Shown: positions 1 through 62,269 of the stretch, piece by piece
Numbering within the stretch: position 1 is the first letter of the stretch
How the letters are laid out: each line of letters starts with the position of its first letter
NCBI GenBank assembly: GCA_964016885.1
Contig: OZ024740.1
Location: 331,390,001 to 331,454,000 of the forward strand
Length of the DNA stretch: 64,000 nt
Source: Eledone cirrhosa
Lineage: Eukaryota
Direction of reading: 5' to 3'
Notes under the pieces: generated by a model
What the model was told of the DNA's origin: nothing
The model's database searches: none
Seen by the model: only the letters and a program-made list of their open reading frames with translations
Made by a program: the position numbers and the translations under genes

Positions 1-249
1 GCACTTCTTTTATGTGTATGTGTGTGTGTGCGTGTGTGCGTGTGTGTGTGTGGCGTTTGAGTACAATATTATGCCAGTTGGCATTAATATCCTTGGCTTT
101 GTGTATTGGCATAGATAAGAATTTCGTTGATGTACCAAACACTGATACAGTTTCAGGTGTATGACGACACCACTTCTTTTTGTTAGTATTTCGTAGAGTG
201 GGCTTGAGTTCGAGTGTATGCAAAAGCCAACTTCGTGTGTTTATATATA

Positions 250-520
250 TATTAAAATAATAGATTAAATTTTAAGCAAAGAATCGCTGCTTACCCCCTT
301 AGCGGGATCTTCTGAAACTAAAAAAAATAAATCTGTGAACGCAGAAGTAAATATTTCGAAAAGTTTGTAACTGAAGGAAAACAGGTAGACGATACTTTGG
401 TTCGTGAAGACGTTCCCTGGCAAAGAACGGGAAAAAGCGAAGATAATACGTCATTATGTGGAGCGTAGAGAACAATTACACGTAAAGATAAAACCACGTT
501 TATAGTATGAATGAAGTAGT
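250..520. mobile_element. Dispersed repeat family A (non-autonomous, probably PLE-terminus-derived) next to (TA)n
   Basis: Motif attaaaataatagattaaattttaagcaaagaatcgctgct...acgcagaagtaaatatttcgaaa. Related copies at ~28630-28830, ~37795-37960, ~48360-48675 (reverse) and ~56760-57640 in each tandem unit. Confidence 0.65.
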
Positions 521-3596: not shown

Positions 3597-3662
<66 letters not shown>

Positions 3663-4038: not shown

Positions 4039-4126
4039 TACCCACTCTACTACAACAAGTATTGAGTACTTTGGTGCGTTATGGTCCACCTGGTTCCTTA
4101 TCACATTTCCTTCGTTATATATATAT

Positions 4127-4572
<446 letters not shown>

Positions 4573-5269: not shown

Positions 5270-5409
5270 TTGTTAAACAATATTCAATGATTATGTCAAA
5301 GAATGAGTCTTACAGTAGATTGGAAGCACTCAACGTAAAAAATAATTTTCTGGAGTTATTAATATTAAAATATAAGTATTAATAAAATAGATGTAATTTT
5401 GATCAATTT

Positions 5410-5464
5410 CATTTTATTATACATATTTCGGATGTACAACAGTACGTCCTCATCAGACAAAATA
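5410..5464 (-). ncRNA. Type I hammerhead ribozyme
   Basis: Minus strand: tattttgt-CTGATGA-ggacgtac-tgtt-gtacatcc-GAAA-tatgta-TA-ataaaatg. Confidence 0.75.
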
Positions 5465-5957
5465 TAATGATACATGACATACCCTGAGATGTTAAATGGT
5501 TAAGATTTAATCAAGGTAGTGATTAACCAGATAGAAAATTTTACTTATATCCTACTTATTAGAAAATGCGAAAACGTAATAAATTCATTAGAGAATATGT
5601 GAGTAATAAAAAGGTTGCATACTGTAAGTGTTCTAAAATTTAAAGTGTATGATATTACAATATAACTAGGAAAACATCTCATTAACAGCCAGTGATAGCC
5701 ACTGGAAAAAAGATTTATAAAGAAGGAAAAAAAAAGTGGGGGGGGGGGGGTCGAAAGTTAAACGGTTAGATTTGAAAATATTTAATTTATAATATTAGGG
5801 TGAAGACTCCAGATTTCAGGATTATTTGCTAGTTATTTATATATTATTTATATGAATTCGATAAGTGTGTTATCATTTCTAAACTTCTGAATTGTTAGAA
5901 TAACATTTAAAGGATGCGTGCATCTCGGACATGCCCGGCTGACGGCACATCCATGAT

Positions 5958-8932
5958 CTAGAGTTTATCCCGAACTGACAATGCTCCTCGGTAGCACTGC
6001 CAGGCCAGAGATTTCTGGAAGTTGTCCATAACTCCCGGCCCGAAAGTTCTTCCGAAGAGATTGGCTAGTTGATTTTCGTCGACGCCTAGAGTTTCCCCAA
6101 GTACATCGTCGCTCTTCCCCTCCACTAATCCTCTATAGAACGCCGAGGTGGAGTTTCCACCGATCACATTGCCTGATTGGTCGAGGGCTGTGAGCGCCTG
6201 AAGACATTCCAGTCTCCAGGCGCTCCCTCTCGATCTTCGCTTGACACAGGACTGCAGCTCCGTCAAGGAAACGAGCTGGGGAAATACGTGTCTAGCAAAC
6301 GGTGACCACACCTGATCATCGTCCAGGAAGAGGTGGAGATGTCGTAGCCTGAGCGCGTGTCTGTGCATCATCAGCCACGGCATTCCCAGCCCTCCGCGTA
6401 GCGGGTGTTGACAGCCGATGGGCCGCCTGACCATCGGAGCGCGTCCCTTCCACAAAAAGCGAAAGAGCAAACGCTCCAGCGCAGTCAGGCGGGGCTTAGG
6501 ACAAAGTACGACGGTCAGCCGGTAGCAGATGACAGACGCGATGTACGCGTTAGCCACCTCCGCTCGACCTTTCAGGGATAGTTTCCTCTCCGCCCATTTC
6601 TGGGTGAGAGAAGCCACCCTGCTCGTCGCCTCGTCCCAGTTTTTGTCCGTCTGGAGGTCCGGACCGAAACAGAACCCTAGCAATTTAACCGGTCTGTCCG
6701 TTCAGCGTCCGACGACGCTATTGGACGGCATGGACCTGCCTCTCCAGGTGCCGAGCTGCAGGCCCACTGACTTTTCTTGGTTGATCATTGCTCCTGTCAC
6801 CGCTTCGTATTCTCTTAGTGTAGTGCCGATCGCCTCGATGTGTTTGGCGTTCGACACCACTACGGTGATATCATCCGCATATGCTGACACGGGTCTTCCG
6901 CATCCTAGTTCGCGCGGGACGCCCCTCGACGTCTCCAGTTTGTGCAGTAATGGCTCGAGAGTCAATACGTACAAGAGGGACGAGAGGGGACATCCTTGGC
7001 GGACCGAGTCAATACGTACAAGAGGGACGAGAGGAGACATCCTTGGAGGACCGTTCACTCTCACCACAGAGCAGATGTCGCTGTGCATGGCAGCAACCCA
7101 GCCTCTGGAGACGGGCCCAAAGCCAGTCGCCCTCAGGACTGCCGCTAGGTAACGATGGGCGACCCGATCGAAAGCTTTCGACTGATCTAAATTGATCAAG
7201 GACCCACCCGTGCCAGGTTCCCTAGCTACCCTCTCTACGATGTATCGTAGAGGTTGTCGTGGATGGATCTGTCGGGAATGGCGCATGTCTGCGCCTCTCC
7301 CACCAGACAACCAACGAACAGCGCCAACCTCTTTGCTAGCACCTTGGCCAAAATCTTGAACTCTGTGTTTAGCAGAGTTATGGGCCTGAAATTATCTATG
7401 TTATACCCCTTGTTCGGATCCTTTCTCAGCAGTGCCACCGCTTCTCGGCTCACAGAACTGGGAATTCTCCCGTTCTGTTGCCAGTTGCAGTAGACGTCCG
7501 CCAAGAGGCCTCCGAACAAGTCATGCATCTGTACGTAAAGTTCATAGGGCAGACCATCCAAACCAGGCGATTTACCCCTTGTGCAGCCAGTCATTGCCTC
7601 CCTTACTTCTGCGGCTGTTATCGGCATTTCGAAACACTCCGCCTCAGTGGCCGAGAGCCGCAGCAGTCCGTCGAGGTACACACTAAAGTCCATCCCTCGA
7701 CCCGGCCCACCGCTGCCCCCGAACAGCTGAGCGAAGTGTCGCTGAAAAGCTTCACACATTTGCCCGGGATCGAGTAGCATGCGCCCGTCGTGGTCCACCA
7801 AAGACCGGATCGTGGCTTTGTTGCCACGACGCGCCTCCGCCACTCGGGCCCATTGAACGGCTTTCGTCCCGTCGTGTCTGAGAGACGCACTCTAGCTCTG
7901 ACAACGCAGCCTTCGTGCTTTGCATTGAAGAATTGGTCAACGGCCAATTTCGCCGCAAGCACGTCGGTCGCAATGCGTTTGCGAAGCGCCTCGTCTAATT
8001 TTCTAACTAGTTCTCCCTCTGCTCTACTTTTCTCTATTGCTAAAGACTTACTAAAACTAATGGATTCTATTCTAATCGTTCTTTTCAGAGCAAACCAGCA
8101 CTTGTTGTTGACGATGGCCCCCGTCAACGCCCGCTTAACTAGTTCGCTAATCCGGTTCTGTAGGCCTTGCGCACTGGTAAGGATGCGTTTAGCTTCCAGT
8201 AGCCGGGTCCTCGTCTATGAAGCCTATCTAAGTCAAGCACACAGATCACGAATTTGTGGTCCGTGTAGCTGACTATCTTGAATTGTGGACAGCCTATGCT
8301 AGACCTGTCTATTTCCCTACAAAATACACTATCTAGATATGATCTGGATGACCCTATGCGATTTTTCCATGTCCACATTGGCACATTCGGGAAATCCAAT
8401 CGGTACCTGTCAGACAGTTTAAAACGCCTGAGCCGGATGGTGAGGCTCTTGCACCCACCACTCCTATCCGCTAATCCCACACAGTCCCAGCGTGCATCTA
8501 AGATCCCGTTCCAACGCCCACTAACACTAAAGAGCGGGACGTTCCAAGAAAGGTCTCCAGACGCAGGAAGAAATCAGGCCGCCCTGCTGTTGTCGGGGCA
8601 TAGACGGCTACTAGCCTGAAATCTTGCGTGTCTCCGCTGGTCACGTCCAGCACCACCAACTTACCCTCTGGGTCCAGGAAGATGGCCCGTATGGCGAGAT
8701 CCAAACCTCTCCGAAAAAGCACAGCAACTCCTCCCCCGATCCAGGACGGATGGAAGATGCGTACACATCGTAGCCGCCGATGATCGGTGCGAAGGCCAGT
8801 GCTTCGGAGATTCTGGTCTCGCTGATGGCCACTACATCTATGTATAGTGACCTGAGGTCGTTGAGCAGGTGACCCTGCTTCCATGACGACCTCAAGCCAC
8901 GCGTTTATATTGCCTATTCTGAGTGAGGTCAT
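5958..8932 (-). pseudogene. Tx1 ORF2 (APE endonuclease + reverse transcriptase), multiple frameshifts
   Basis: Motifs: LRIGNINA, VVAISETR, LVAVYAP, SRSYLD, YTDH, PGYWKLN, GKSPGLDG, NFRPITLLNTEFKILAKVLA, LDQSKAFDRV, VRQGCPLS, AYADD, GGLGMP. Confidence 0.9.
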
Positions 8933-8967
8933 GTTTAAAATAGAGTGGAAAAGATGGGAAAGACCAC

Positions 8968-10938
8968 TTACCGTACTTTTCGTAGAGGAAGGATGGTTTT
9001 TCCATCCCTTTTCATTTGATCGTCTGGTGAAGGGACCGTCGAATCGTCCCTTCGGCTGGTCGTCGGCTCTTCTATGAGTATGTCCGAATATACTCTTCGG
9101 TTGAGAGTCCCTCCTAGGTCTCTGAAATCACCAACTGCGTTGGGGAATTTCGTTTTAATGCTTGTGTATTGTTTCTGTGCTATTTTTAGCAGTCTTATGT
9201 TAGCTGGCGTTTTGATTGGTGCTGGTATTATGTAGTCGTGCTGTGAAATGTCTATGTGTTCAATTATGTAAGTCATTAGTTTCTTGTTGTGTGTATTTAT
9301 TGCCGTGCATTTGTTTTTCTGGGGGTGGGGTGTGGTTCTGCTATTTTCTTGTCGTTGTTGCTGGGTGTGTGTGTTTTGTTGTTGTGTTTGCGATGTTGGT
9401 GCTTGTGGTGGTGTTGTTGAAGGTGTCGTTGTTGTTGGCGGTGGGGTTGTCGCCGGTGGTGATGGTGGTGCTAGTGTGGATGGTGATGGTGTTGGTGGTG
9501 TTGCTGCTGTGAGTCTCTTTGCAGTAGCCTTTACCTTTTTTCATTTCTTTCCTCCCTTTTCGAAGGCGACGATGCGCTGCTTCTGCGTTTGTGCCTTCTT
9601 ACGACCTTTTGCCATCCCTCTCCCACCTCACACTCCATGTCTGATTCTGTGAGGTCGGGGAGGGGTACCAACCCCACTCTTCCACTTGTTGTTGTTGGTG
9701 ATGTTTGCACTGGAGTCTCTGTTGCAGCCGCATTTGGTATTACTGTTGTTGTTGTTAATACTTCCACTGCTGCTGCTGTTTTTGATTTCCGTGGCGTGGG
9801 TATGGGTGCCACGGACCTATCGTTCCTGAATGCCGCTTGGTCTGTTGATGATAGCCGTGGAGCCGGTTTCGGAAGGAGGGGGGTTTTCTCCTTTCTCAGG
9901 GTCTTCTCGTTGCAGAAGGCCCTGAGGTGAGTCTTCGATCCACAGCGAAAGCATTTCGGGCGTTTGCCCTCAACACTTATGGGCAGTTGAGTGCCGTTAT
10001 CGAAGTCTATCGCATCCGGGATAGCTTCAATGCACTCCTGGTTGGTTTGGATTAACATCTCAATGGAGGTGCCGACCCAATCTTCTCTTACTTTTTCAGT
10101 ACTTGCAGTACAGTTGTTTTGTCCTCGATTCCGACGAGGACAGACGCGGCCAGCCAAGAAGGGGCCATCCCGGGGGGGGGGGGGTCAGTTTGACCCTCAC
10201 AATTTTTTGCCCGCAGTAGGAGGGCACCAACACCATTTCCTCGCTCCTTAGGGTCACTACGGATTGGGCCTTTGCCTCCTGGGGTGTGGCAAAAAGCACG
10301 TCTACGGTGGCATATTTCTTGCTTCGGGTGATGTGCGTTTTCCGCTGCCACACAGATTTTTGTATTTGAGCCTCTGTGGCTCTTTCAACCCTACGGGATT
10401 TTGTGCTTACTGTATGGTACGTGACCGTACAGTGCTGTTGGGTTTCGAAAACATTTTCGGCTGCCTTGCAGATTGCTCGGTGTCCGGTTTTCGTCACCAT
10501 CTTCTTCGCTTCCTCTAATTCCTCATTTGTTATGAGGATGGTTTCCAGGTTCTTTGCGATACCTGCAAACGAGATTGGTTTTTCTTTGCTGCTGTTGTTG
10601 TTGTTGTTGTTGTTGTCAGAGCTGCTGTTACTTTTGTTGTTGCTGCAGGTACTACGACTACTGCCGCCGCCGCTGTTGCTGTGGTTTTTATTGTTGTTGC
10701 TGCTGCTGCTGCTGTTGTTGTTGCTGTTTCTGCTAATGCTGTTGTTGTTTATGCTGCTGCTGATACTGTTGCGGCTGCTACTGTTGTTTTCCTTGTCACT
10801 GTTGATGCTGCTGCTGTTATTACAGCTGCTACTGCTATTATTCCTGACGTTAGACGAATGCAATGAGTTTTCATATTTCCCGCACACCTTTTTCGTCGTT
10901 GTCGTCGTCGTTGTGGAGAAATCTTGCACGCTTTGCAC
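8968..10938 (-). pseudogene. Tx1 ORF1 (gag-like), Asn/Ser-rich N-terminus, CCHC knuckle
   Basis: CFRCGSKTHLRAFC (CX2CX4HX4C). Frame break at the poly-G run ~10171-10184 and further breaks downstream. Confidence 0.75.
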
Positions 10939-11299
10939 GTGATTTTTCTTTTCTGGCGTCGCTTGCTAAAGAGAAGGGAGAGAGAGAGACACATTTAGAG
11001 AAGGGAGGGAGAGAGACAATCTTCTCTCTGCTGTAGTGACGATTGAGGAAGAAGACGGAATGAGTGGGAGTGACCTATGAAAACTATTTTTCGTAGCCAT
11101 GTTGTTTTTTTTTGTTTAAAATAAATATTGGGCACAAAACCCCAATAAGCCGTTATTTAACCCCGAAGAGCCAAATAACGGGCAGAAAGACCCCTCTCAC
11201 GAGGAGGAGGGTGTTTTTGTCTACAAGTTGGTTAAAGTTTTAAACAATTTACAATTGTTATAGCGGTCAAAATTCACAATACCGTCAACCATAGCATTT

Positions 11300-19846: not shown

Positions 19847-19965
<119 letters not shown>

Positions 19966-20252
19966 CAAATAACGAAACGAAATTAAATTTCGTTTCGTTT
20001 GTAACTCACTTTTGTATGACTGACGCTTAAACAATTAAGTTAAAAATGTACATCCACATATGTATACTGAAATACTAGTATGCATATAAATACACACACG
20101 TGTACATATGTAGATGTACCGAGTTTTTCACTGGACACTTTACTGTGAGTGTTCAGCTAGTCTGTATGTAAACACACAGACAAACCGGTTTTTAGAGTCA
20201 TACTGGTTTTCGAGGAAACACCTTTCCTCTATTCTCCAGAAAGCCAGACAGG

Positions 20253-20297
20253 AATATTGGACTAGTTTCGATGTTGTTACATCTCATCAGCAATATT
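20253..20297 (-). ncRNA. Type I hammerhead ribozyme (inverted arm)
   Basis: Exact reverse complement of 20707-20751. Confidence 0.9.
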
Positions 20298-20706
20298 TAC
20301 CTATCCTCCGGCCTTTCTAGAGAATCGTAAAAGCACATATCGTTATATGCTTTTTCTATGAAAATTAGTAGTGGGCAGACTACTTTGCATAGAGCGTGAG
20401 TACGTACCGGTTCAGCGGAGACGATAAAAACAAATAACGAAACGAAATTAAATTTCGTTTCGTTTGTAACTCACTTTTGTATGACTGACGCTTAAACAAT
20501 TAAGTTAAAAATGTACATCCACATATGTATACTGAAATACTAGTATGCATATGAATACACACACGTGTACATATGTAGATGTACCGAGTTTTTCACTGGA
20601 CACTTTACTGTGAGTGTTCAGCTAGTCTGTATGTAAACACACAGACAAACCGGTTTTTAGAGTCATACTGGTTTTACGATTCTCTAGAAAGGCCGGAGGA
20701 TAGGTA

Positions 20707-20751
20707 AATATTGCTGATGAGATGTAACAACATCGAAACTAGTCCAATATT
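20707..20751 (+). ncRNA. Type I hammerhead ribozyme
   Basis: aatattg-CTGATGA-gatg-taacaa-catc-GAAA-ctag-TC-caatatt. Predicted cleavage after C20744. Confidence 0.92.
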
Positions 20752-21171
20752 CCTGTCTGGCTTTCTAGAGAATAGAGGAAAGGTGTTTCCTCGAAAACCA
20801 GTATGACTCTAAAAACCGGTTTGTCTGTGTGTTTACATACAGAATAGCTGAACACTCACAGTAAAGTGTCCAGTGAAAAACTCGGTACATCTACATATGT
20901 ACACGTGTGTGTATTCATATGCATACTAGTATTTCAGTATACATATGTGGATGTACATTTTTAACTTAATTGTTTAAGCGTCAGTCATACAAAAGTGAGT
21001 TACAAACGAAACGAAATTTAATTTCGTTTCGTTATTTGTTTTTATCGTCTCCGCTGAACCGGTACGTACTCACGCTCTATGCAAATTAGTCTGCCCACTA
21101 CTAATTTTCATAGAAAAAGCATATAACGATATGTGCTTTTACGATTCTCTAGAAAGGCCGGAGGATAGGTA

Positions 21172-21216
21172 AATATTGCTGATGAGATGTAACAACATCG
21201 AAACTAGTCCAATATT
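21172..21216 (+). ncRNA. Type I hammerhead ribozyme
   Basis: Identical to 20707-20751. Predicted cleavage after C21209. Confidence 0.92.
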
Positions 21217-21455
21217 CCTGTCTGGCTTTCTGGAGAATAGAGGAAAGGTATTTCCTCGAAAACCAGTATGACTCTAAAAACCGGTTTGTCTGTGTGTTTA
21301 CATACAGACTAGCTGAACACTCACAGTAAAGTGTCCAGTGAAAAACTCGGTACATCTACATATGTACACGTGTGTGTATTCATATGCATACTAGTATTTC
21401 AGTATACATATGTGGATGTACATTTTTAACTTAATTGTATATATATATATATATA

Positions 21456-22449
21456 TACAATATATGGAAACTATATTTTTAAAACCATATTTATTTTATT
21501 ATACATATTTCAAGGGCAACCAAGGCAGATTATGGTGCGCTTTCATCAGATAAAATTCAGATCTGTTTTATAAATAAATATTGACATACCACGAAAAAAG
21601 ACAACCTTAACGGTTGGAGCTTCCTGGATAGTGGAGATATTACATTTATTGAGGATAATACAAAGTTATGACTGAGTATGCAAATGAGTGTCCGAAAGGT
21701 TGAAAAGATAACGGTTTATTTAAATTAAACTGTTGGAAGAAGATGATATGTAAGGGAGAGAGAAAAAAAAGAAAAAAGAAAAAAAGATAAAAGTAAAAAG
21801 AAAAAAGAAAGGAGAAAGATAGAAGACGAAAGAAAGAACAATTATATATATTGAGAGTGAAGATAGAGTGCATGAAGAAATCAGTTTCAAAGGATAAATA
21901 TACACAGCGTAAGTATATCTAAGTGAAAGAAGAAATAAGATTCACGTGGAAGAATAATATTTATAATGCAGGGTTCATTACGTTTTGATTATAACACTTA
22001 TAATGATAGGTTGAAAAATTAGATTAAAATTAAAAATTAGAAATCAAAATTAAAGATTAAAATTTGCCTTAATATTAAAGATTTAATTTAATAATTTAAT
22101 ATTAATAGTTAGTTTAAATGTGTATGTTAAGGATTATAAATTATTTAAGTAAATCTATAGTATTTTACATTAGAGAAAATCTAGTATAGTTTATTTTATT
22201 AAAAGTTGTAAGTCCAAATTTAAACATCAAAATAATTCTAAATTTATGAAATTACGAGAGTTTACAAAGGAATAATCACTCAATTATATTATAAAAACAT
22301 TAAGGAAGTGTAAAGGAAGTTATTTATAAAACAAATCTGTATTTTATCTGATGAAAGCGCACCATAATTTGCCTTGGTTGCACTTGAAATATGTATAATA
22401 AAATAAATATGTTTTTATAAATATAGTTTCCATTTATTAATATATTGTG
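21456..22449. mobile_element. Fold-back element with ~120-bp terminal inverted repeats
   Basis: 21456-21577 is the reverse complement of 22320-22449; AT-rich interior. Confidence 0.7.
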
Positions 22450-22530
22450 TATTTACTCCACCTACTGTTGAGTGCTTTTACAGTTATAAAAATATTTAAC
22501 ATGTTGAATCCCAACAATTTAAATATAAAC

Positions 22531-22763
22531 TCTGCATATATATATATATATATAAAGCTGACGGCCGTACGTGTGTATGTAACACACTTTTGGCAAAACA
22601 GCTGGACCAAACGGCACCAAATTTGCACCATAGATATAACTTTTACCAAGGAAGAAAGTCAGGGTAATTTTGTCTACTAAATTTCGTTATTTTTGATTAA
22701 AGGTATTTTGTTTATTTAAAGATTCACTTCGTTAAAATTATCAAATGTCAACACGTCCGGCTA
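22531..22763 (+). mobile_element. Short non-autonomous Helitron-like element
   Basis: 5' tatataaagctgacggccgtacgtgtgt...ggaccaaacggcaccaaattt; ends ...gtccggCTAG. The same 5' motif restarts at 22868. Confidence 0.45.
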
Positions 22764-23089: not shown

Positions 23090-24115
23090 TACTTCCGAAT
23101 CAACATCACGGAACAGGGAGGGATCCACTGCAACTTCTACCGAAAGGCAGCCTGCAGGGACCTGTTCGGCCACTACAAATCCGCCCTCCCTAACAGTGCC
23201 AAAAGAGGGTACATTAGAACACCAGAGATTCGTCTTTGCGGAAACACATAGCCAAATGCGGAAACAAAGACGGAACGCCCATGGTCACAATTCTAGCGAC
23301 AGAGAGAAACGTCGGTACATTACGTATCAAGGAAGCACTTTCGATCAAACGCCTAGGGCCACAATTAAACGACCGATGCGAGAGAAGCGAAATGAGGTGG
23401 TTGGTTTAAATAAACAAACGATCCAGCAACACACGCACACACACACACACACAAGCGAGACAGCAACACACGCACACACACACACACAGTAGCATTCCAC
23501 CATACGAACATACTACACTGCCAATACAGAGGAACAAGGCAACCACATACGCACACACACACTCAACCGAAACAACAACACACGCACACACACACTCACA
23601 CAGTAACATTCACCAAACAGGCAGAGAATACTATTGACTGACAGCTAGCGCCACTCCACTCCCACAATTGAAAGAACTAACTCAGCCGCGACCTCTGCTT
23701 GACCGACCCCATTTCACGCGCACGCGCGCTCTGCTAAATGCCTGAGATATTCAAAACAACGAACAGCGGAGGACACGTTTCGCACCTTTCCGACAGACCC
23801 CCCCCCCCCCAGGCAAAAAAACCCAGTTGATGGATGTGAATCCGAAATATATAGGGACATTTAAATCTCTCCCAAGGTAACTCTACCTCGTGTTATTATT
23901 TTTATTTTTATCCTTTACGCTCTTTCCTACATTCTTCTACACGCTACAGTCTTCTACACGCCACACATCTCAACGTACACCCACTTACATTTCTCTCTCC
24001 ACCACCGGAACTTGTTACCCGGAGATTTACCCAACTGCATTGTCGAGGCTTCCAAACGACTTAAATAAATTTACCTTATTCCACAATGCTTCAAGCAAAC
24101 ATCAATACTCTCTTA
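23090..24115 (+). pseudogene. Internally deleted PLE (RT thumb fused to GIY-YIG C-terminus) with 3' UTR
   Basis: FRINITEQGGIHCNFYRKAACRDLFGHYKSALPNSAKRGYIR, then SSLRKHIAKC...VTILATERNVGTLRIKEALSIKRLGPQLNDR. Degenerate HHR at 23822-23856 (CAGTTGA-t-ggat-gtga-atcc-GAAA-tata-TA-ggg). Confidence 0.7.
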
Positions 24116-24142
24116 TATATATATATATATCTATCTATCTAT

Positions 24143-26704
24143 CTAAGGCGGGTAAAATTCCCGAGATCCATGGACGAGTTCTCTCCAGCGGTCTCTGTCC
24201 CTCATTATCGCTGCCATATCCTGCATCTCCAACAGACCAGTGTCTGTCCTTAGGGCATCAACATATGTTAACCTTGGACTTCCTCTTCTAGTGTGTCCAT
24301 GTAGGGGCTCCCAAAGGAGCACTGAGTGCAATGTCAACTCTGGATGTCGGTGAGCATGTCCAGCCAACCTCAGTCTCCTCTGTGTCACTTTTGAGCTGAC
24401 TTTTGGGATGCTCCCATACAGCTCTGAGTTTTTCATCCTCAGTGTATACTGATTAATGTTCAGAGCCATCCTCAGCATTCTCGTGTAGCACCCATCCACC
24501 ATCTGAGTGAGTTTCTTGGTCAGTGTCCAAGTCTCAGACCCATACAGCAGCACAGACTCCACTACAGCAATGAAGAGGCGGATTTTCAGGTCCCTACGAA
24601 GGTTCGACTTCCACACCGATCTCAAGCTGTGGCACGCCGCCCAGGCATTGCTCTTCCTCTCAACCACATCATCCTCCGTATTCCCAATCTTTGCTCCCAA
24701 ATACAAGAAGTCCTCAACCAATTCCAGCGGCTTCCCGCCTACATTAGTGATCCCCTCTGGCTTCTCAACATTCTCTACCAGATATTTTGTTTTAGTCTCA
24801 TTCATTCTCAGCCCCACACTCATCGACACAGTCTCAACCTCCCGCATCAAATCCTCTGCCTCCTTCACTGTATTTGTCACCAAAACTATGTCGTCGGCAA
24901 ATTCAGCATCCGATACCTTTTTCGCCCCAACTCTCCTGCTCTGAGCCGGTGCTACAGTAAAGCCAGAGTCCTGGTGTTTCTCCAGTGCAAGGCGCATACA
25001 ATAGTCCACTACGATGATAAAAAGGTAGGGAGCCAATGTTTCTCCCTGGAGCACTCCAGCCAGTATCTCAAAGTACTCTGTGATCCCATCAGGCGTAATG
25101 ACTTGGGCTTTGGTGTTGGTGTAGAGCAGTGATATCAGGTCCACTATCCTCTTGGGGATTCCATAAGCCTGTAAGATCATCATCAGGCAGTAACGTTTCA
25201 CAGAATCAAAGGCCTTCCTAAAGTCAATGAAAACCATGACCGCAGGAAGGCACTTTGCTCTAGCTCCCTCTAATATCCTCCTCAGCATCAGGATGTGACT
25301 GGTGGTTGATCTACCCTCTCTGAAGCCGTTCTGGTTGTCCATGAGCTTCTTCTCCATCTCAGGCTGGATCCTGTTAAGAATCATCCTGTTGAGGGTCTTT
25401 GCCACAAGTGACGTCAGTGAGATACCCCGGTAGTTGTTGGTGTTAGAGAGATCTCCCTTCTTTGGCACTGGGACGATGTTACTGATCCTCCACTGATTCG
25501 GGGCAACTCCTTTCTCCAGTGCCCCGTTACAGAACCCCAGGATGATATCATCAAAATCACACCTCTTCATCACCTCTGATGCCACTCCATCTTCTCCATG
25601 AGCCTTGCCCTCCTTGATCTTCTTCTTGGCTCTCTGAAGCTCCTCTCTGGTGAAGGGCTCTGTCTCAACATCCAGTTCCTCAAACAGCCGCCTGATCCCC
25701 TCAGTGCTCTGGGCTGTGGAGGGTGGCTCTCCTAGTAGGGTCCTAAAATGGTCTAGCCATTTCCTCTTCCTATCCTCGGGCCCCGTTCCCTGGATCTGAC
25801 TCGAACACCTTTTCTTCCTCCCTGTGATCTCGTTGATGATCATCCAGCTTTCCTTACATCCAGATCTGTCAACCGCTCTCTCCACACTTCTGATCTTCTC
25901 TATCAGTGCCTCCTCTCTGACCTCAGTGTAAGCGGTACAGAGCTCTTCCCTCATCACTTCCACAGTCTCCATCCTCTCCTCCGTAGGATCAGCATAGAAT
26001 TGGTCCCTGGTAGCTTTCAGGTGTTCTCTGGCGGCACACACTTTTGGGTTTACAGAGCTGACGTGCTTCCCTTTGTTCTTTTTCCTCGGCACCAGGGTTT
26101 CACTTGCTTTCGCCACTGCATTGGTGAAGTGCCCGTACCTCCTCGTCACACTCTCCTCAGTCCATCCAATCTCTCTCTCCTCTGACTCTCCACACAGAGC
26201 ACTAAACCTGTTTCTCACTTCCACTGTGAACCTCTCTTGTAGCTTATCATCTTCTTTGAAAGCTCCCCAGTCATAGATTGTTCTCTGGGGCTGAGCCTTG
26301 CTCTTTCTTAAGCTCACGCGGACCTCACTCATAACAAGCCGGTGGTCACTACCCAGTGTACTGAAATAGCTGTATGGTTCCGTGTTCAGAACACTATTCC
26401 GCCACTTTTTCCTCACCAGAATGAAATCAATCTGGGACTTGGACAGGTGCATATCTGAGATGTAGGTCCACATCTTCCCCAGATTCTTCCTAAACCTTAG
26501 GTTGGTCGCCATCAAGTTCGCCTCCAGCAGGGTGTCTCTCAGTAGTCTTCCATTTCGGTTGGTGTTGTTATGGAAGTACCAGCAAGGATCTTCACTGCCC
26601 TCCTTACTCAGATGTGCATTGAAGTCCCCCAAAACAAGCAGGATATTGTGTGCCTGAGTGGTGTTGACAGCTCTACACACCTCCTCATGGAACTCCTCAG
26701 CCAT
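24143..26704 (-). CDS. RTE-type LINE ORF: C-terminal half of APE + RT, 853 aa uninterrupted
   Basis: Motifs: LGDFNAH, SQIDFIL, GSDH, YRGISL, QNGFREGRST, FIDFRKAFDSV, GVLQGETLAPYLF, FADD, FLYLG, LLYGSETW, RRLRLAGH. Confidence 0.92.
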   Translation of the reverse strand: MAEEFHEEVCRAVNTTQAHNILLVLGDFNAHLSKEGSEDPCWYFHNNTNRNGRLLRDTLLEANLMATNLRFRKNLGKMWTYISDMHLSKSQIDFILVRKKWRNSVLNTEPYSYFSTLGSDHRLVMSEVRVSLRKSKAQPQRTIYDWGAFKEDDKLQERFTVEVRNRFSALCGESEEREIGWTEESVTRRYGHFTNAVAKASETLVPRKKNKGKHVSSVNPKVCAAREHLKATRDQFYADPTEERMETVEVMREELCTAYTEVREEALIEKIRSVERAVDRSGCKESWMIINEITGRKKRCSSQIQGTGPEDRKRKWLDHFRTLLGEPPSTAQSTEGIRRLFEELDVETEPFTREELQRAKKKIKEGKAHGEDGVASEVMKRCDFDDIILGFCNGALEKGVAPNQWRISNIVPVPKKGDLSNTNNYRGISLTSLVAKTLNRMILNRIQPEMEKKLMDNQNGFREGRSTTSHILMLRRILEGARAKCLPAVMVFIDFRKAFDSVKRYCLMMILQAYGIPKRIVDLISLLYTNTKAQVITPDGITEYFEILAGVLQGETLAPYLFIIVVDYCMRLALEKHQDSGFTVAPAQSRRVGAKKVSDAEFADDIVLVTNTVKEAEDLMREVETVSMSVGLRMNETKTKYLVENVEKPEGITNVGGKPLELVEDFLYLGAKIGNTEDDVVERKSNAWAACHSLRSVWKSNLRRDLKIRLFIAVVESVLLYGSETWTLTKKLTQMVDGCYTRMLRMALNINQYTLRMKNSELYGSIPKVSSKVTQRRLRLAGHAHRHPELTLHSVLLWEPLHGHTRRGSPRLTYVDALRTDTGLLEMQDMAAIMRDRDRWRELVHGSREFYPP

Positions 26705-27189
26705 TGAAAAGAAATATGGAGAGTCGATCTAACAACACTAGGGTTAGAGCCCCTAATTACACTGTCAAGGAGCAGCCTGGTCGTTATGACTCTGCTGGCT
26801 TAGAGCCACAGAGAGGGCCAGTGGATGATGGGTCAGCTGTCTCTGAGACAAATATAAAGAATGCAGTTTTGTCCTGCAGAAGAGCCATCAAAATGGGCAC
26901 TTTGAATGTGAGGACTATTCGAACGCTGGAGAAGAGAGAGGAGTTGGGACATCTGTTCGAGGAGAGTGGTATACAGATACTTGCGATCCAAGAACACAGG
27001 ATTCTACACGATGAGCCCGTGAGGAGTGGGTTTTGTGTTCAGTGCAAAAACCAATCTGTTAGTGAGGGAAATAATGCCTATCTCCCCGCGAGTGTTGAGG
27101 GTGACCTTCAATGGAAACCCAAGACTGACAGTCATCTCAGCCTATAGTCCAACCGAGGGGGACAGTGATGTGAATGCGGAGGAGTTCCA

Positions 27190-27190
<1 letters not shown>
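26704..27190 (+). mobile_element. Inverted 5' segment of the RTE LINE (N-terminal APE)
   Basis: MGTLNVRT...ILAIQEHR, then (frameshift/deletion) GFVF...ISPRVLRVTFNGNPRLTVISAYSPTE...NAEEFH. This continues into the AEEFHEEV start of the minus-strand ORF. Confidence 0.88.
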
Positions 27191-28193: not shown

Positions 28194-28831
28194 ATTTTCA
28201 ACAGTAATACTGTACCGTATATTTTCAACAGTAATACTGTACTATATATTTTCAACAGTAATACTATACTATATATTTTCAACAGTAATACTATACTATG
28301 TATTTTCAACAGTAATACTATACTATATATTTTCAACAGTAATACTGTCTATATATCTAATACAGAGAATGTCTATCTGTATGTCTGTCCCCCTAAAACT
28401 CGAGAACCACCCAACCGATTTTTTTCACACTTTACACATGTAATACTTATGGTCGTGTGAGTGTTCAGAGCAAAATATATTTCAATGCCCTAGGGACCGC
28501 ATTAGGCGCCGATTAGCGATCTCACTCTCTTTCTTAGTCTGTCTTTTTAGATAAATACATAGCTATAACGTCGCTCCCTTATAATATCTGTATGTATGTG
28601 TGATGTCTGCATTGCAAAATTATGAAAACATAAAACGCAGAAGTAAATATTTCGAAAACCTTGCAACCGAAGGAAAACAGGAAGACGATACTTTGGTTCG
28701 TGAAGACGTTCCCTGGCAATGAACAGAAAAAAGCAAAGATAATACGTCAGCAATGAGAACAATATTTGCTCTAGCCTTCTCATATATTTGATATATATTT
28801 ATCCTTATCGAGCCCTCTTTGGTTCGACTAA

Positions 28832-28900
<69 letters not shown>

Positions 28901-29465
28901 TTTTGCGAGGTTTTTTATATGAAATCGTGTGTCGAAACAGATATTGTTATATTTGGGGAGGGTCATATTTGCGTAATATTGCCAGAATTAATAACAGAAC
29001 ACACTCACTGTCTGGTTGGTTTTCGCTTCTCGCTGTCTTTTATATATATATATCTGCGATCTAACTTACTCGGTCCTCAATGTTGCCATTGACTGACCGG
29101 CGGTCAAAAATAATACAGATACAATATAGACACAAACACATATATATAGTTTACATAATTTACATAAATCTTTCGTTGCACATCTGCAACATCGTCAGTG
29201 GTGTTATATTCATTGTTCCTCCTGTTGTGTTGTATGTCTACGCCATTTTTTTGTTCAGTCTGTCTATATATTTATTTATTTATTTGCTTGTTTGTTTATC
29301 TTATTTTATTTTGTATTCTTTGCGCATGCGTTTGCGTGTGTGTATAGTGTTATGTGTGATGTGTGACTAGTGTGTATAGTGTTGTGTCTGCTGGGTGACT
29401 AGTGTGTGTTTATGTGCTTGTGTATGTATTTATTTATCTTATTTTATTTAATTTTATTTACTTAT

Positions 29466-32400
29466 TTATACTTCTCTTAGGTCAGTGTTGTTTGTTTGGG
29501 TGTTGTTGTTGTTCCACTCATTCTTTCTGTTTAGCTTTGGTCTTCTAATTTCTATTTCACTGGCCTCTCTGATTTGCCTATCTGCTGGGTCATTCCTATG
29601 TTTAGATATTATTCTAATTTCTATGTTGTCTATGTTACCGCCATGTTGTTGTCTAGCATGTTCGTATAGTACTGACCCGTTTTTTCGTCCTTTTAGTTCC
29701 CCCCAGTGTTGGTCTATCCTTTCACCTATGCTACGAGCTGTCTCACCTATGTATGTTGTTGTCATGTTTCTGCAAGTACCCTCTGTACATCTTATGCTAT
29801 AGACTACGTTTCTAGTTTTACAGTTTATCCGGGGGTTCACCTTACATATGATACATTTCCTATTAGTACAGTGAGTTTTCTTAAAAGGGTAGGTTTTGCT
29901 GATCAGGGATTTTATGGTGGTTTCTGGCTTTTCTACCACCTTTATTTTTAAGTGGGTCTTTCTCAGGGCCTTTCTACACTGGTTAGCTAATTTCCCTCCA
30001 GGGGTGGCGTCCACAAACATGACACTCTGATATCTCTGGTTGTCGTACCATGATGTGGCCTTCCCTATCTTATGTCTAGCCCTATCTAAGCTATTCCATG
30101 ATTTGCTCCTGTATAGTGGGCAAATTCCTTTCATGTCCAGTTCTATGAGGGTCTTATACTTTTCCATGGCTCCTTCGTATACTCTGACTCTGTCTCTTTG
30201 GTTGTAGCCAGAGAACTGCATGCGGTTGATGAAGTGTTGGATGTGTCCTTCCATTTCTGTTGGGTCGCACATGCTGGACACATTCTTCATCACTCGTACC
30301 AAATCTGCGATCAGAATATTAAACTTAGCACTACTGGACATTGCTGAGTTTTTGAGTATCAGGTATTTGGAGGCCATGGGTTTAGCATAGTGTGAGTGGA
30401 GAATTTGGGCTCTCTCGTCTATAGTGTTAATCCAGAGTTCTGTGTCTAATACAGCTAGTCTATTGTTAGGGTGTTTGGAAGGGAAGTCTATAGTTACAGT
30501 TATACTCTGGTGTATGGAATTAGCTATCTGCTGGATGCTTTCCATCGTGCTACGTTCTAAATCAAACTTGTTAGTGCTCTCTAGTGGGGGTGTTCTTATA
30601 ACTATATTGATATCGTCTACATAACGAGAGTACATGATGAGGTCTATGGAGCTTTCATTAAGGAGATCTTTAAGTCTCCTTTCCCACCATACCATGAAAA
30701 GGTTGGCAACATCACCAGCTATGCTGACGCCGATGGCTGCTCCCTCATTTTGGGTGTAGATTTTCTCATTGAACTTAAATATGTGGCCCTTTAGGGTAGT
30801 TTTGATACTAGCCCCTATTGCATGTGCGACCATTTTTCTTACCTGATCAGTGTTTTGGGAGGTCCGTATAGCTTTGGTCCACCCAATCCACCTTCCTATG
30901 GGAGTCTTTTTAGCCATTGAGGTTATGGTGGGGGGTCTACCTCTTATAGGTCTACTAGGGCAGAAACATCTAAGGTCATGGCTGTCTAGGTAGTCAGTGT
31001 CGTAGGTAAGTCTAAGTAGGAGGCCCAGTTCGTCTGTGTCGACGTCGCAGAACTCCACCTCACTCTCAATGATCATCTCCACACATCTTTTCACAGCAAA
31101 ATCAATGTTAATGGATGGGTAAAGTGACACCACATCCATGCTGCCTATTATGCAGTTGGATAGGCTCCTGTTTTTGTTGCACTCACTGATTCTGCTGAGG
31201 AGGTCCTCTGTACTTTCACATACATCTGGGGACATCTTGATTATGGGGCGTATAACCATTGAGAGGAAGTAGGAGATCCTGTAGTTGCTAGCTATATTAG
31301 CTCCGCATACGGGTCTTGTTGGTGGTCCTGTTGTCGGGTCGTCGACTGTCTTGTGGTCTTTGCGGATCCCATACAAGGGTGGTATGCCATTGTTAGACGC
31401 CTGGAAGTTGTTGGCAGTGCGTCTGCTTGGCTTTAGGATGTCAGTCCACATCATCATGTGAGCGTTGAGGATTTTTTCTCTCCCATAGTGTGTTAGTTGT
31501 GCAACTTCGCTCGTGTTGGTGATGTGGGGTTGCATTGCCTCGATGTAGTTCGGCATGCTATCTATTGACATCCTACCAGACTTATCTGTGGGTAGACACA
31601 CTACCTCACCATCCCTTGTGCGCTGCTTGAGGCTAACCAAGCCTTCTACAGGTTTTATCCCAAGTTGTTGGGCCTCTGGTCTGCTCTGTCTCATAGTGTA
31701 CCTGTCTACTACTTGTCTAATCTTATTTCTAGCTATGGTGAACTGTGCCTCCGTCTCGTCATCTATTTGCTGTGGTATGCAAACTCTTTTATTAAAGGGT
31801 AACCTCGTAGGATAGATATTACCCATCTTATATGTTTTGTCAGCTGGGTTGAAAAATAGTTTCTCTAAGGGGTTGTCGTTATTTCTATCGTCATAGTTGT
31901 GTGTGTTGCTATTATTGTTATCATGGTGGTTGTTGTTGTTTCTATCATTAGCATTAATATTATTATTGTTATGATTGCTAGATGTATTGTTGTTTACTTC
32001 ACCGTTATTGTTGTTGTTGTTACTGCTATTTCTACCATTGTGGTTGTTACTATTATTATGTTTCTTGTTTTTGTTGATGTTGCTACATGTACTATTTCCA
32101 TTATTACCACTGTGGTTATTGTTGTTGTTGTTGTTCGTATTGTTACCGTTATTACTACTGTGGTCACTGTTGCTGTGTCTGTGGTTAACGTTTCTATTAT
32201 TATTATTATTGTGGTTGTTGTTGTTCTGTCTATCGCTAGTATTATTGCCATTATCACTATTTCTCACTTTCCTGCCATTGTTATGGTTATGGCTGTTATT
32301 TCTATACCCAGAGTTATTGTTTATATTACTACTACCGTTATTATTGTTGTTGTTGTTTACCTTTGCATTCCAACGTATTTTTGTGAAACACTTTTCCAGC

Positions 32401-33098
32401 TCCGTTTTGCATTCCATAGGGTTAATCTTTTTGTAGATGGCAAATTTTGGTGGTAACTTTAGGATTTGTTGTTCTTGTTCACTGATTAAAGTGTTCCCAT
32501 AGATATTTACTGTGTGGTCATTGGTAAATTCTTCCGGTAGTTTTACATCACTCATACGGATGTTGTCGATGTTATCTGGGTATTTTTGAGAATATTCGAT
32601 TTTCCTTTCTTGTAGTTTTTTCTTATTCATCCATTCTAATTTCTTCTTGAAATGCCTACAGCATTCGTTTTGAGCATATTTCGTTTCGCGTCGGATGACG
32701 CTCATGAAGTCATCTCTCTCGTTTGCTGTGATGAGATTTCGGATTTCCTTACCGTTGATGCGTTTTTGTCTGTAGAGTGCGTTGACTTTTGTGTATGTTG
32801 TTCTTTTCATATTAACTGTTATTGTATGTTTTAGCCGTTCAGCTTGTGTTTTGTTCAATAATAAATTATTTACTTGTTTTGATATGTTTGTTGTGTATGT
32901 TTTGGAGGAAACACAGTGTTTTAAGAAGCGGATTTGTTCTGTTGTTATTGTAGTTTTTATATAACAGAAAACAGTGTCTTTCAATAACCTTTCAGCTTGG
33001 CACAAGCTAATGCCATAGCGGCGATGAATTAGTTTTGCGAGGTTTTTTATATGAAATCGTGTGTCGAAACAGATATTGTTATATTTGGGGAGGGTCAT
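29466..33098 (-). CDS. Intact PLE polyprotein, 1210 aa: RT + Cys-rich linker + C-terminal GIY-YIG endonuclease (Neptune-like)
   Basis: Motifs: PTDKSG, PPLYGIRKDHK, RPV, SMDVVSLYPSI, QNEGAAIG, RYVDD, VLD, HCTNRKCIIC..C, VVYSIRC...YIGETAR...R..QH, REASEI...PKLN. Confidence 0.93.
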   Translation of the reverse strand: MTLPKYNNICFDTRFHIKNLAKLIHRRYGISLCQAERLLKDTVFCYIKTTITTEQIRFLKHCVSSKTYTTNISKQVNNLLLNKTQAERLKHTITVNMKRTTYTKVNALYRQKRINGKEIRNLITANERDDFMSVIRRETKYAQNECCRHFKKKLEWMNKKKLQERKIEYSQKYPDNIDNIRMSDVKLPEEFTNDHTVNIYGNTLISEQEQQILKLPPKFAIYKKINPMECKTELEKCFTKIRWNAKVNNNNNNNGSSNINNNSGYRNNSHNHNNGRKVRNSDNGNNTSDRQNNNNHNNNNNRNVNHRHSNSDHSSNNGNNTNNNNNNNHSGNNGNSTCSNINKNKKHNNSNNHNGRNSSNNNNNNGEVNNNTSSNHNNNNINANDRNNNNHHDNNNSNTHNYDDRNNDNPLEKLFFNPADKTYKMGNIYPTRLPFNKRVCIPQQIDDETEAQFTIARNKIRQVVDRYTMRQSRPEAQQLGIKPVEGLVSLKQRTRDGEVVCLPTDKSGRMSIDSMPNYIEAMQPHITNTSEVAQLTHYGREKILNAHMMMWTDILKPSRRTANNFQASNNGIPPLYGIRKDHKTVDDPTTGPPTRPVCGANIASNYRISYFLSMVIRPIIKMSPDVCESTEDLLSRISECNKNRSLSNCIIGSMDVVSLYPSINIDFAVKRCVEMIIESEVEFCDVDTDELGLLLRLTYDTDYLDSHDLRCFCPSRPIRGRPPTITSMAKKTPIGRWIGWTKAIRTSQNTDQVRKMVAHAIGASIKTTLKGHIFKFNEKIYTQNEGAAIGVSIAGDVANLFMVWWERRLKDLLNESSIDLIMYSRYVDDINIVIRTPPLESTNKFDLERSTMESIQQIANSIHQSITVTIDFPSKHPNNRLAVLDTELWINTIDERAQILHSHYAKPMASKYLILKNSAMSSSAKFNILIADLVRVMKNVSSMCDPTEMEGHIQHFINRMQFSGYNQRDRVRVYEGAMEKYKTLIELDMKGICPLYRSKSWNSLDRARHKIGKATSWYDNQRYQSVMFVDATPGGKLANQCRKALRKTHLKIKVVEKPETTIKSLISKTYPFKKTHCTNRKCIICKVNPRINCKTRNVVYSIRCTEGTCRNMTTTYIGETARSIGERIDQHWGELKGRKNGSVLYEHARQQHGGNIDNIEIRIISKHRNDPADRQIREASEIEIRRPKLNRKNEWNNNNTQTNNTDLREV

Positions 33099-33599
33099 AT
33101 TTGCGTAATATTGCCAGAATTAATAACAGAACACACTCACTGTTTGGTTGGTTTTCGCTTCTCGCTGTCTTTTATATATATATATATCTGCGATCTAACT
33201 TACTCGGTCCTCAATGTTGCCATTGACTGACCGGCGGTCAAAAATAATACAGATACAATATAGACACAAACACATATATATAGTTTACATAATTTACATA
33301 AATCTTTCGTTGCACATCTGCAACATCGTCAGTGGTGTTATATTCATTGTTCCTCCTGTTGTGTTGTATGTCTACGCCATTTTTTTGTTCAGTCTGTCTA
33401 TATATTTATTTATTTATTTGCTTGTTTGTTTATCTTATTTTATTTTGTATTCTTTGCGCATGCGTTTGCGTGTGTGTATAGTGTTATGTGTGATGTGTGA
33501 CTAGTGTGTATAGTGTTGTGTCTGCTGGGTGACTAGTGTGTGTTTATGTGCTTGTGTATGTATTTATTTATCTTATTTTATTTAATTTTATTTACTTAT

Positions 33600-34637
33600 T
33601 TATACTTCTCTTAGGTCAGTGTTGTTTGTTTGGGTGTTGTTGTTGTTCCACTCATTCTTTCTGTTTAGCTTTGGTCTTCTAATTTCTATTTCACTGGCCT
33701 CTCTGATTTGCCTATCTGCTGGGTCATTCCTATGTTTAGATATTATTCTAATTTCTATGTTGTCTATGTTACCGTCATGTTGTTGTCTAGCATGTTCGTA
33801 TAGTACTGACCCGTTTTTTCGTCCTTTTAGTTCCCCCCAGTGTTGGTCTATCCTTTCACCTATGCTACGAGCTGTCTCACCTATGTATGTTGTTGTCATG
33901 TTTCTGCAAGTACCCTCTGTACATCTTATGCTATAGACTACGTTTCTAGTTTTACAGTTTATCCGGGGGTTCACCTTACATATGATACATTTCCTATTAA
34001 TACAGTGGGTTTTCTTAAAAGGGTAGGTTTTGCTGATCAGGGATTTTATGGTGGTTCCTGGCTTTTCTACCACCTTTATTTTTAAGTGGGTCTTTCTCAG
34101 GGCCTTTCTACACTGGTTAGCTAATTTCCCTCCAGGGGTGGCGTCCACAAACATGACACTCTGATATCTCTGGTTGTCGTACCATGATGTGGCCTTCCCT
34201 ATCTTATGTCTAGCCCTATCTAAGCTATTCCATGATTTGCTCCTGTATAGTGGGCAAATTCCTTTCATGTCCAGTTCTATGAGGGTCTTATACTTTTCCA
34301 TGGCTCCTTCGTATACTCTGACTCTGTCTCTTTGGTTGTAGCCAGAGAACTGCATGCAGTTGATGAAGTGTTGGATGTGTCCTTCCATTTCTGTTGGGTC
34401 GCACATGCTGGACACATTCTTCATCACTCGTACCAAATCTGCGATCAGAATATTAAACTTAGCACTACTGGACATTGCTGAGTTTTTGAGTATCAGGTAT
34501 TTGGAGGCCATGGGTTTAGCATAGTGTGAGTGGAGAATTTGGGCTCTCTCGTCTATAGTGTTAATCCAGAGTTCTGTGTCTAATACAGGTAGTCTATTGT
34601 TAGGGTGTTTGGAAGGGAAGTCTATAGTTACAGTTAT
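33600..34637 (-). pseudogene. 5'-truncated duplicate of the PLE ORF C-terminus (upstream pseudo-LTR)
   Basis: The 303-aa ORF is identical to the main ORF except four substitutions (R/C, E/G, T/I, G/D). Confidence 0.9.
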
Positions 34638-37789: not shown

Positions 37790-37963
37790 TATTCAAATAA
37801 CAGGATAAAATTTAAACAAAGAATCGCTTAACGGATCTTCTTTGCTTAAACTTTAATCTGTTATTTTAATAAATATTTGCTCTATGTTTTTTTATATATT
37901 TTTATATATATATTATCCTTATCGAACCTTCTTCGGATTTTAGACTTCACATTTATTTTCATT

Positions 37964-38018
<55 letters not shown>

Positions 38019-38271
38019 CTGATTCCAGATTGAGCTGATCGATGTTGACACGATTCTAGTATGCCAATAGAATTTATATATATGCTGCAACAATGATTTA
38101 GATCCTAGTTATATATATAGTAATGATAATAAATGTGAAGTCTAAAATTCGAAGAGCGCTCGATAAGGGGAATATACATATAAAAATATAAAAATATATT
38201 TTAAAAAACCATAGAGCAAATATATATATATACATTTCTGAGAGGTTCGTGCGGGCTGAATCCTCATACAT

Positions 38272-41481: not shown

Positions 41482-41519
<38 letters not shown>

Positions 41520-41520
<1 letters not shown>

Positions 41521-44400: not shown

Positions 44401-45051
44401 TGCCACTTTCTAATATATATATATATATATGTGTGTGTGTCTGGGTGTCTGTGTGTATATATACATATAATTATATAAGCGTATATAAATATACACACAT
44501 AAATACGCATATAACGCACGCACACACATACCTACAGTTTTAAATACACATATGTTCACTAAACATACATCAACCAAAACACAAAGTACACGTATACACA
44601 CCTTACATACGTGCAAACACTCATACACACACAAACACAAATTACACATATACACATAATCATATACACATGTACCACTATATATAATATAATATATACA
44701 CCTATAACAAATACAAGCAATTATACGTACGAGAATGTTTACGTACCTTCACAAAACATACGGGTAAGGTATACTTACGTATACAAATAAATAATGGTAT
44801 AAACATAAAATATACTTAGCTAACACATCAAGGCGTAAATTATCCGCGTATTGTTCGTACTATCCGTTAGGGTATAATGTGGGGCTATAATACAGGAAAG
44901 GTTTATGCAATTTATGTTCAAAAGCCGAAATTGCCTCCCCACTTTACCCTGAAGGATCAGAAACCCAATTTCACCAACAAGCCCTCTATTCGGCTTATTA
45001 ACCCTACGACGTCCGGTTTAGGTAGACTTAGTAAAAGGATTTTATATAGGA

Positions 45052-48668: not shown

Positions 48669-48714
<46 letters not shown>

Positions 48715-56724: not shown

Positions 56725-56763
<39 letters not shown>

Positions 56764-59476: not shown

Positions 59477-59518
<42 letters not shown>

Positions 59519-62230: not shown

Positions 62231-62269
<39 letters not shown>

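Follow-up and report, generated by a model that had tools for sequence, protein, structure and literature searches.

A short non-coding repeat with a ribozyme lies in the DNA of the octopus Eledone cirrhosa as two arms of opposite orientation, joined head-to-head between TA tracts. The question raised by this locus is which RNA served as template and which enzyme put it there. The stretch analyzed (the window, 64,000 nt) is AT-rich, repeat-dense animal DNA, in which the whole insert at 19959–21438 is built from a 465-nt hammerhead-ribozyme repeat. An earlier note on this DNA had described a retrozyme-like insert with an inverted, permuted structure in the style of PLEs. In the following, unit position 1 corresponds to window position 21134, and the coordinates of the features are collected in Table 1.

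The repeat unit and its ribozyme

Three identical hammerhead cores occur in the insert, at 20260–20291 on the minus strand and at 20713–20744 and 21178–21209 on the plus strand. The core is intact in all three passes over the ribozyme position, and none of 100 shuffles contained any core. The motif is of type I, with a helix I of 6 bp carrying a bulge and an outer stem, a helix II closed by a loop of 4–6 nt, and a helix III of only 1–2 bp with a palindromic loop; cleavage is predicted after unit position 76. The Rfam model Hammerhead_HH9 matches it with 34.2 bits (E = 3.4e-6), below the gathering score of 52, and across the whole window there is no Rfam match at the gathering level. Rfam matches to microRNAs, far below their gathering scores, were taken as hairpin or low-complexity noise. 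Although just 1.65 units long, the plus arm contains two consecutive ribozymes 465 nt apart.

Folded as a circle, the monomer has a minimum free energy (MFE) of −152.3 kcal/mol, a value as low as which was reached by none of 60 dinucleotide shuffles (z = −9.6); 67% of the predicted circle is paired, and helices I and II are present in the MFE structure. The GC fraction is 0.364 (20001–21000), thus under 50%, and no ORF of 120 aa or more overlaps 19959–21438. With neither an RT nor a GIY-YIG ORF, the insert is not an autonomous PLE and is at most PLE cargo. Judged by sequence, the unit fits the definition of a non-LTR retrozyme, and the term used in the earlier note is upheld by the 465-nt period, the type I hammerhead in each unit and the lack of coding capacity.

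The same short non-coding repeat with one type I hammerhead per unit and a GC content below 50% characterizes metazoan non-LTR retrozymes, together with a highly paired predicted circle, a foldable ribozyme, and co-occurrence with PLEs (PMC7229834 and bioRxiv 10.64898/2026.07.22.740005, in their available text). The unit of 465 nt compares with 150–450 bp in the former and 51–972 bp in the latter source. The one-bp helix III with a palindromic tetraloop of the axolotl HHR_Amex1 matches the hammerhead of the insert, as far as that motif is described in the text available. Hammerheads with a short helix III are poor at cleavage when monomeric but efficient when in tandem, a behavior that would stabilize monomeric circles (available text of PMC4209133); eight of nine predicted Xenopus retrozymes showed no cleavage in vitro (bioRxiv 10.64898/2026.07.22.740005, text as available). 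In the available descriptions, metazoan retrozymes are arranged head-to-tail, as monomers, dimers, or multimers, whereas the present insert is head-to-head and made of two partial tandems.

In the open-access literature, supplements aside, neither an inverted retrozyme insertion nor an octopus retrozyme was found described, and the combination of “retrozymes” with “twin priming” gave no match there. The word “inverted” is absent from the main texts of PMC7229834 and PMC4209133, and occurs once in bioRxiv 10.64898/2026.07.22.740005, in the form in which these texts are available. The insert is a putative new retrozyme family member with a two-ended inverted insertion footprint.

Anatomy of the insert

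The junction given in the earlier note, about 1.5 units in minus orientation joined to about 1.6 in plus orientation through TTTT, is borne out (1.54 and 1.65 units). The RNA-sense 3′ ends point outward, that of the minus arm overlapping the left TA tract by 3 nt and that of the plus arm overlapping the right one by 1 nt; these overlaps are at chance level (20% and 89% of unit positions). An exact microhomology of at least 4 nt, as at the junction, is present in 2.3% of all 465 × 465 possible head-to-head junctions of the unit. An extended 9-of-11 match around the junction was equalled by 5.5% of 20,000 random junctions and, as borderline, was discarded.

The four arm ends fall at unit positions 4, 126, 305, and 377, none of them at the cleavage site. 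It also holds, as claimed before, that the outer ends abut (TA)n: The left flank reads (AC)18(AT)38, the right flank (TA)9. Neither end carries a poly(A) or simple-repeat tail, and unit-internal sequence runs directly into TA. A MITE or DNA transposon was rejected: The arms are offset by 72 nt, do not form terminal inverted repeats that begin at both ends, and are themselves partial tandems.

Over their paired 645 nt the arms have four mismatches, and in total there are five substitutions in 1484 nt, each private to one partial copy. Because the arms of neighboring insertions are 90%–93% identical, so few changes indicate a young insertion. A blastn and core scan of the 64-kb window found the unit at this single locus. 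The earlier note expected about 700 bp of double-stranded RNA from read-through; a hairpin is possible, with a shorter stem. A read-through transcript could form a duplex of 645 bp, 641 of them paired, with a 118-nt loop, and in the predicted fold the first plus-strand ribozyme stays folded and the second is buried.

Table 1. Features of the insert and of the elements used for comparison (window coordinates)
Feature	Position	Strand	Remarks
Left target tract	19849–19961	.	(AC)18 then (AT)38
Minus arm	19959–20675	−	unit 126–465 + 1–377 (reverse complement), 717 nt, 1.54 units
Minus-arm extension beyond plus arm	19959–20030	−	72 nt, unit 306–377
Type I hammerhead, minus-arm copy	20238–20308	−	Rfam HH9 E = 3.4e-6, below gathering score
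Head-to-head (5′–5′) junction	20672–20675	.	exact 4-nt microhomology TTTT, unit 126–129 vs. unit 4–7
Plus arm	20672–21438	+	unit 4–465 + 1–305, 767 nt, 1.65 units
Spacer between 645-nt inverted arms	20676–20793	+	118 nt; contains first plus-strand ribozyme
Type I hammerhead, first plus copy	20696–20766	+	predicted cleavage after 20744
Cleavage-to-cleavage monomer, predicted circular RNA	20745–21209	+	465 nt
Type I hammerhead, second plus copy	21161–21231	+	predicted cleavage after 21209
Right target tract	21438–21457	.	(TA)9; common to older neighboring insertion
Older non-coding insertion, inverted arms	21458–22535	.	arms 93% identical, 90–96-nt tail, same TA tract as retrozyme
AP-endonuclease LINE, 5′ inversion	24114–27189	−	junction near 26705; TA both ends
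Young PLE	28896–34637	−	1.39 units, 1217-aa stop-free frame, TA both ends, no inversion
Decayed PLE, inverted 5′ copy	41517–44412	+	tail 58–63 nt
Decayed PLE, inverted copy of 3′ end	44431–47954	+	no clear tail

Template and geometry

There is one crossing of the cleavage site in the minus arm, and there are two in the plus arm. Unless end-to-end jumps took place, these crossings exclude a cleaved linear monomer as template and support a circle or an uncleaved multimer, with both arms reading through the cleavage site. Between these two, we give some preference to the circle. The double crossing in the plus arm argues for it, since a linear RNA of that kind should cleave (PMC4209133, available text); against it, the in vitro assay with a PLE protein used uncleaved linear RNA (PMC11167929). 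For this choice, variant phasing is uninformative, all five variants being singletons, a pattern that fits one template followed by later mutation.

The arms span unit positions 4–770 and 126–842, and neither span includes the other. A fold-back chimera, raised as an alternative in the earlier note, and a plain snap-back were both rejected, as the spans are not nested, the arms differ at four of 645 positions, the flanks are unrelated, and one arm overruns the other by 72 nt. The geometry supports a two-ended target-primed insertion. Two cDNAs, one per target strand, joined at their 3′ ends, give the best reading, accounting for all features with the fewest steps.

PLE-type insertions in the window

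Four other inverted insertions of PLE type, at 21.45, 41.5, 44.4, and 56.7 kb, were compared with the retrozyme. In three of the four, one arm is longer at its 3′ end by an unaligned overhang, of 58 nt at 41.5 kb, 89 nt at 56.7 kb, and 96 nt at 21.45 kb; the overhang of the 44.4-kb element, about 10 nt within a CA run, is effectively no tail. By the same measure the offset in the retrozyme is 70 nt (72 by unit coordinates). The chance of an offset of 60–95 nt is 15%, rising to 41% when every offset of at most 95 nt is counted. Among the hallmarks of PLEs are inverted 5′ copies, tails, and (TA)n targets, with published tails of 30–40 bp (PMC8557442, in the text available) against 58–96 nt locally. 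The extension at unit 306–377 is a candidate PLE-type tail, for which the offset is suggestive, and the two start sites 72 nt apart may correspond to two fixed initiation sites.

The 56.7-kb family is dispersed in the window (245–320, 28634–28835, 37838–38191, 48607–48681, and 56757–57634), and two 3′ ends recur in it, separated by about 89 nt. The position of the short end is identical at 56757, 245, and 48681 (no TA follows the copy at 245), and that of the long end is roughly so at 57634, 37971, 38112, and 28835; tandem duplicates of the 56.7-kb locus were left out of these counts. The long end of the 41.5-kb family recurs near 3597. From this recurrence, PLE-type ends in the window appear fixed in pairs, as in PMC11167929. 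The earlier note took arbitrary ends as a sign of PLEs, probably by wrong logic, and fixed termini in other copies as a refutation; the latter has to be reversed, as fixed ends, if found in other copies, would speak for the PLE model.

The 56.7-kb locus itself lies in a 2752-bp tandem repeat (54897–64000; at least 3.3 copies, 99.9% identity) that is either a recent duplication or an assembly artefact. Each unit of it contains the inverted PLE-type insertion at 56757–57634, with a long untailed and a short tailed arm.

The elements at 41.5 and 44.4 kb had been described as coding PLEs with the same inverted-5′ layout. Both do have inverted copies of their 3′ ends (arms 90.1% and 91.5% identical, respectively), but their frames are broken by stops and frameshifts. 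The inverted arm at 41.5 kb is interrupted, about 1.4 kb being lost with a dispersed 190-bp repeat in its place, and that at 44.4 kb is set apart from the ORF by about 1.15 kb. In the 41.5-kb element, a Pfam match to GIY-YIG exceeds the cut-off. Its inversion junction lies near 42289 (42159–42482), where the 5′ ends are just about 55 nt apart.

The PLE at 28.9 kb shares the target of the insert, as had been stated, with TA at both ends, but is not inverted. It represents a candidate type of trans-acting enzyme. It lies 7.5 kb from the insert, between TA tracts, and has a CX4CX2C linker, a motif hypothesized to act in microsatellite targeting. Among named relatives of its protein, the best comes from Octopus vulgaris, with 67% identity across 91% of the query, and both of the two named proteins among 36 matches are from that species. 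Pfam at E 0.001 did not recognize the full 1217-aa frame, and with its last 803 aa the match to RVT_1 (E = 3.4e-4) stayed under the cut-off, so that the assignment rests on motifs and layout. The frame includes an Asn-rich low-complexity stretch, and the element's 3′ end falls 90 nt into the start of the frame. The element adjoins the tail of another family, a case of nested TA targeting. Hammerhead-like cores at 29198 and 33332 gave no clear helix I in the fold and are not claimed.

In the older insertion next to the retrozyme, both arms contain a hammerhead-like motif of type I with a weak fold, at 21549 (minus) and at 22348 (plus); Rfam reported neither of these motifs. A related motif occurs at 5456 on the minus strand (5405–5470).

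Within the window, no partner PLE was found for the unit (best blastn E = 0.084; none convincing with nhmmer). In local alignments with six local element ends, the best score was reached by one of 100 shuffles, through low-complexity TG/TA sequence. The lack of a partner is weak evidence, since in Xenopus a match to a known element was obtained for only 24 of 57 families (bioRxiv 10.64898/2026.07.22.740005, available text). A weak nhmmer match on the minus strand at 48808–48919 to unit 273–374 (12.4 bits; E = 0.0017 or 0.47, depending on the rotation) was reached by none of 60 shuffled units. A TA tract is located about 80 nt away, no hammerhead was detected, and the sequence is possibly a remote relative or a compositional match.

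A LINE with an inversion

The AP-endonuclease LINE at 24–27 kb, which we take to be RTE-like, lies 2.7 kb from the insert and serves as a counter-control. It has Pfam matches to RVT_1 and Exo_endo_phos_2, and its main frame is open for 861 aa. Its full-length relatives align with residues 1–199 on the plus strand (26716–27190) and with residues 195–1044 on the minus strand from 26701. The segment that was inverted stems from the sequence immediately upstream, and about 17 nt are duplicated at the inversion, whereas the inverted pieces of PLEs duplicate the 3′ end. Since this LINE has both, inversion and TA flanks are not specific to PLEs; TA tracts are moreover dense in the window (82 tracts, 2210 bases). 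On the circular unit, the same end positions can be read either as a 72-nt tail or as a LINE-style deletion of 91 nt in a 3.4-mer. The ends themselves favor a PLE over a LINE, both being internal to the unit and tail-less, whereas the LINE ends in an (ATAG)n tail.

Elsewhere in the window there is a decayed two-ORF LINE (5958–11000, minus strand) with RT matches in several frames. Young inverted structures also lie by TA tracts at 4114–4435 and 618–1597, with arms 98.6%–100% identical.

Proposed mechanism

On balance we consider it somewhat more likely than not that the retrozyme was inserted by two-ended target-primed reverse transcription, probably of a circle, with a PLE enzyme acting in trans. 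The starting point, as read from the sequence, is a unit whose type I hammerhead is complete, has a helix III both unstable and palindromic, and lies in a highly paired predicted circle. By analogy with the retrozymes of other animals, tandem transcripts would self-cleave as dimers, and monomers would be ligated into stable 465-nt circles. A PLE protein with RT and GIY-YIG domains would then cut both strands of (TA)n in trans. The 3′-OHs would prime internally, at the observed unit positions 305 and 377, and each cDNA would make about 1.6 turns, running past the cleavage/ligation site. Finally, the 3′ ends of the cDNAs would anneal through AAAA/TTTT and be filled in. Of the reverse transcription around a circle by a PLE in trans put forward in the earlier note, the read-through of a circle or multimer and the two-ended geometry have stood, and the PLE enzyme is the presumed part.

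In favor of this model, both RNA-sense 3′ ends lie on TA, and a 4-nt microhomology joins the 5′ ends (2.3% by chance). A PLE protein in vitro cuts and extends both strands, with initiation fixed at a pair of internal sites corresponding to the genomic tail (PMC11167929), and this internal start on both strands is like that of the model. Endonuclease-bearing PLEs share with the insert the partial tandem, the inverted copy on the 5′ side, the (TA)n target, and the offset outer ends (PMC8557442, in its available text; PMC11167929). Unlike them, the insert has no ORF, its hammerhead is canonical and not minimal, and no pseudo-LTR partner was found in the window. In the twin and dual priming of L1, two cDNAs from opposite target strands are likewise joined at their 5′ ends (available text of PMC2837659), but the insert has neither poly(A) nor a visible target-site duplication, which the TA tract would hide, and its arms cover the unit more than once. 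The evidence base of the model is one locus in genomic sequence.

The mechanism put forward in the earlier note is one proposed in print since 2014 and 2020 (PMC4209133, PMC7229834). In their available text, the former proposed circular RNA as template for reverse transcription of more than one unit by PLE enzymes, and the latter made the same proposal for retrozymes, arguing from shared features that PLEs are strong candidates. The proposal is repeated in PMC7761336, and in bioRxiv 10.64898/2026.07.22.740005 animal retrozymes are held to be non-autonomous PLE derivatives, on the basis of co-occurrence and pseudo-LTR similarity (both as available). Insertion footprints add a third, cheap line of evidence on the enzyme and the template of animal retrozymes. 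The locus makes a sharp prediction, with ends expected at unit positions 305 and 377, arms exceeding one unit, and TA targets, which turns a published hypothesis into a genome-wide test; as a single locus it is an example, not a proof.

A stronger version is tentative and rather doubtful: Both subunits of a PLE dimer would have copied one and the same 465-nt circle, in a double rolling circle with fixed starts 72 nt apart, this distance being the retrozyme's own PLE tail. If true, the insert would give direct genomic evidence that PLE enzymes reverse-transcribe animal circular RNAs as circles. It would also account for the inverted and tailed structures of PLEs, the origin of which is called undefined in the available text of PMC8557442.

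Other explanations

An AP-endonuclease LINE could have primed on a linear multimer at least 3.4 units long, initially at unit 305 and then internally at unit 377, 91 nt being lost at the inversion. For L1, both twin and dual priming are known (PMC2837659, available text), and the LINE at 24–27 kb, with its open frame and TA at both ends, shows an inversion of this kind. Such an origin is nevertheless unlikely: Neither end of the insert carries (ATAG)n or poly(A), similarity to the 3′ end of the LINE is absent (20 of 100 shuffles score as well), and the RNA would need three uncleaved ribozymes. The sequence order is also formally compatible with a rearrangement of DNA, in which the left part of a head-to-tail array of about 3.4 units was later inverted, with a 91-nt deletion and microhomology-mediated repair. 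Microhomologies of 4 nt are typical also of end joining and template switching. This course of events is distinctly unlikely, as one breakpoint would have to coincide with the TA boundary, the five changes in 1484 nt point to a young insertion, and inverted layouts that arose at insertion time are seen in five or more other insertions of the window.

A snap-back in vivo, in which the cDNA folds at the microhomology and is copied, would need an additional slip between template repeats to gain the 72 nt. It would agree with the small distance between the 5′ ends (118 nt; about 55 nt in the 41.5-kb PLE) and the similar arm lengths of 717 and 767 nt. In its plain form, however, it stops at unit 305 in one register and yields about 370 nt at most in the other, so that an extra switch is needed; the tailed arm of the 56.7-kb insertion is the short one, likewise beyond the reach of snap-back, and we regard this course as very unlikely. 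Repeats of this sort are known to trouble assemblies (PMC8557442, text as available), but there is a very slim chance that a fold-back chimera from the library or a misjoin between repeat copies produced arms with four differences over 645 positions, a 72-nt offset, and unrelated unique flanks, the right one being the intact end of an older element. Least credible are two independent insertions of the same family, the second exactly at the 5′ end of the first. Nested TA targeting does occur, between the retrozyme and the 21.45-kb element and between the 28.9-kb PLE and the tail of another family; against it, the junction has kept no TA, neither arm is younger than the other, the arms have no distinguishing variants in common, and the two 5′ ends share a microhomology.

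Minor features of the unit

An octamer motif is present in the unit at 21079–21086 and is mutated in the minus arm. Promoters of the snRNA type belong to the background on newt satellite 2; a literature search gave no confirmation of this. With four octamers in the window against 4.4 expected, the motif was rejected as evidence. At unit position 99 (window 20767, 21232, and 20237), an A/G variant lies in a long stem and changes a pair between Watson–Crick and wobble. The variant could echo A-to-I editing of the template, and one later mutation explains it equally well.
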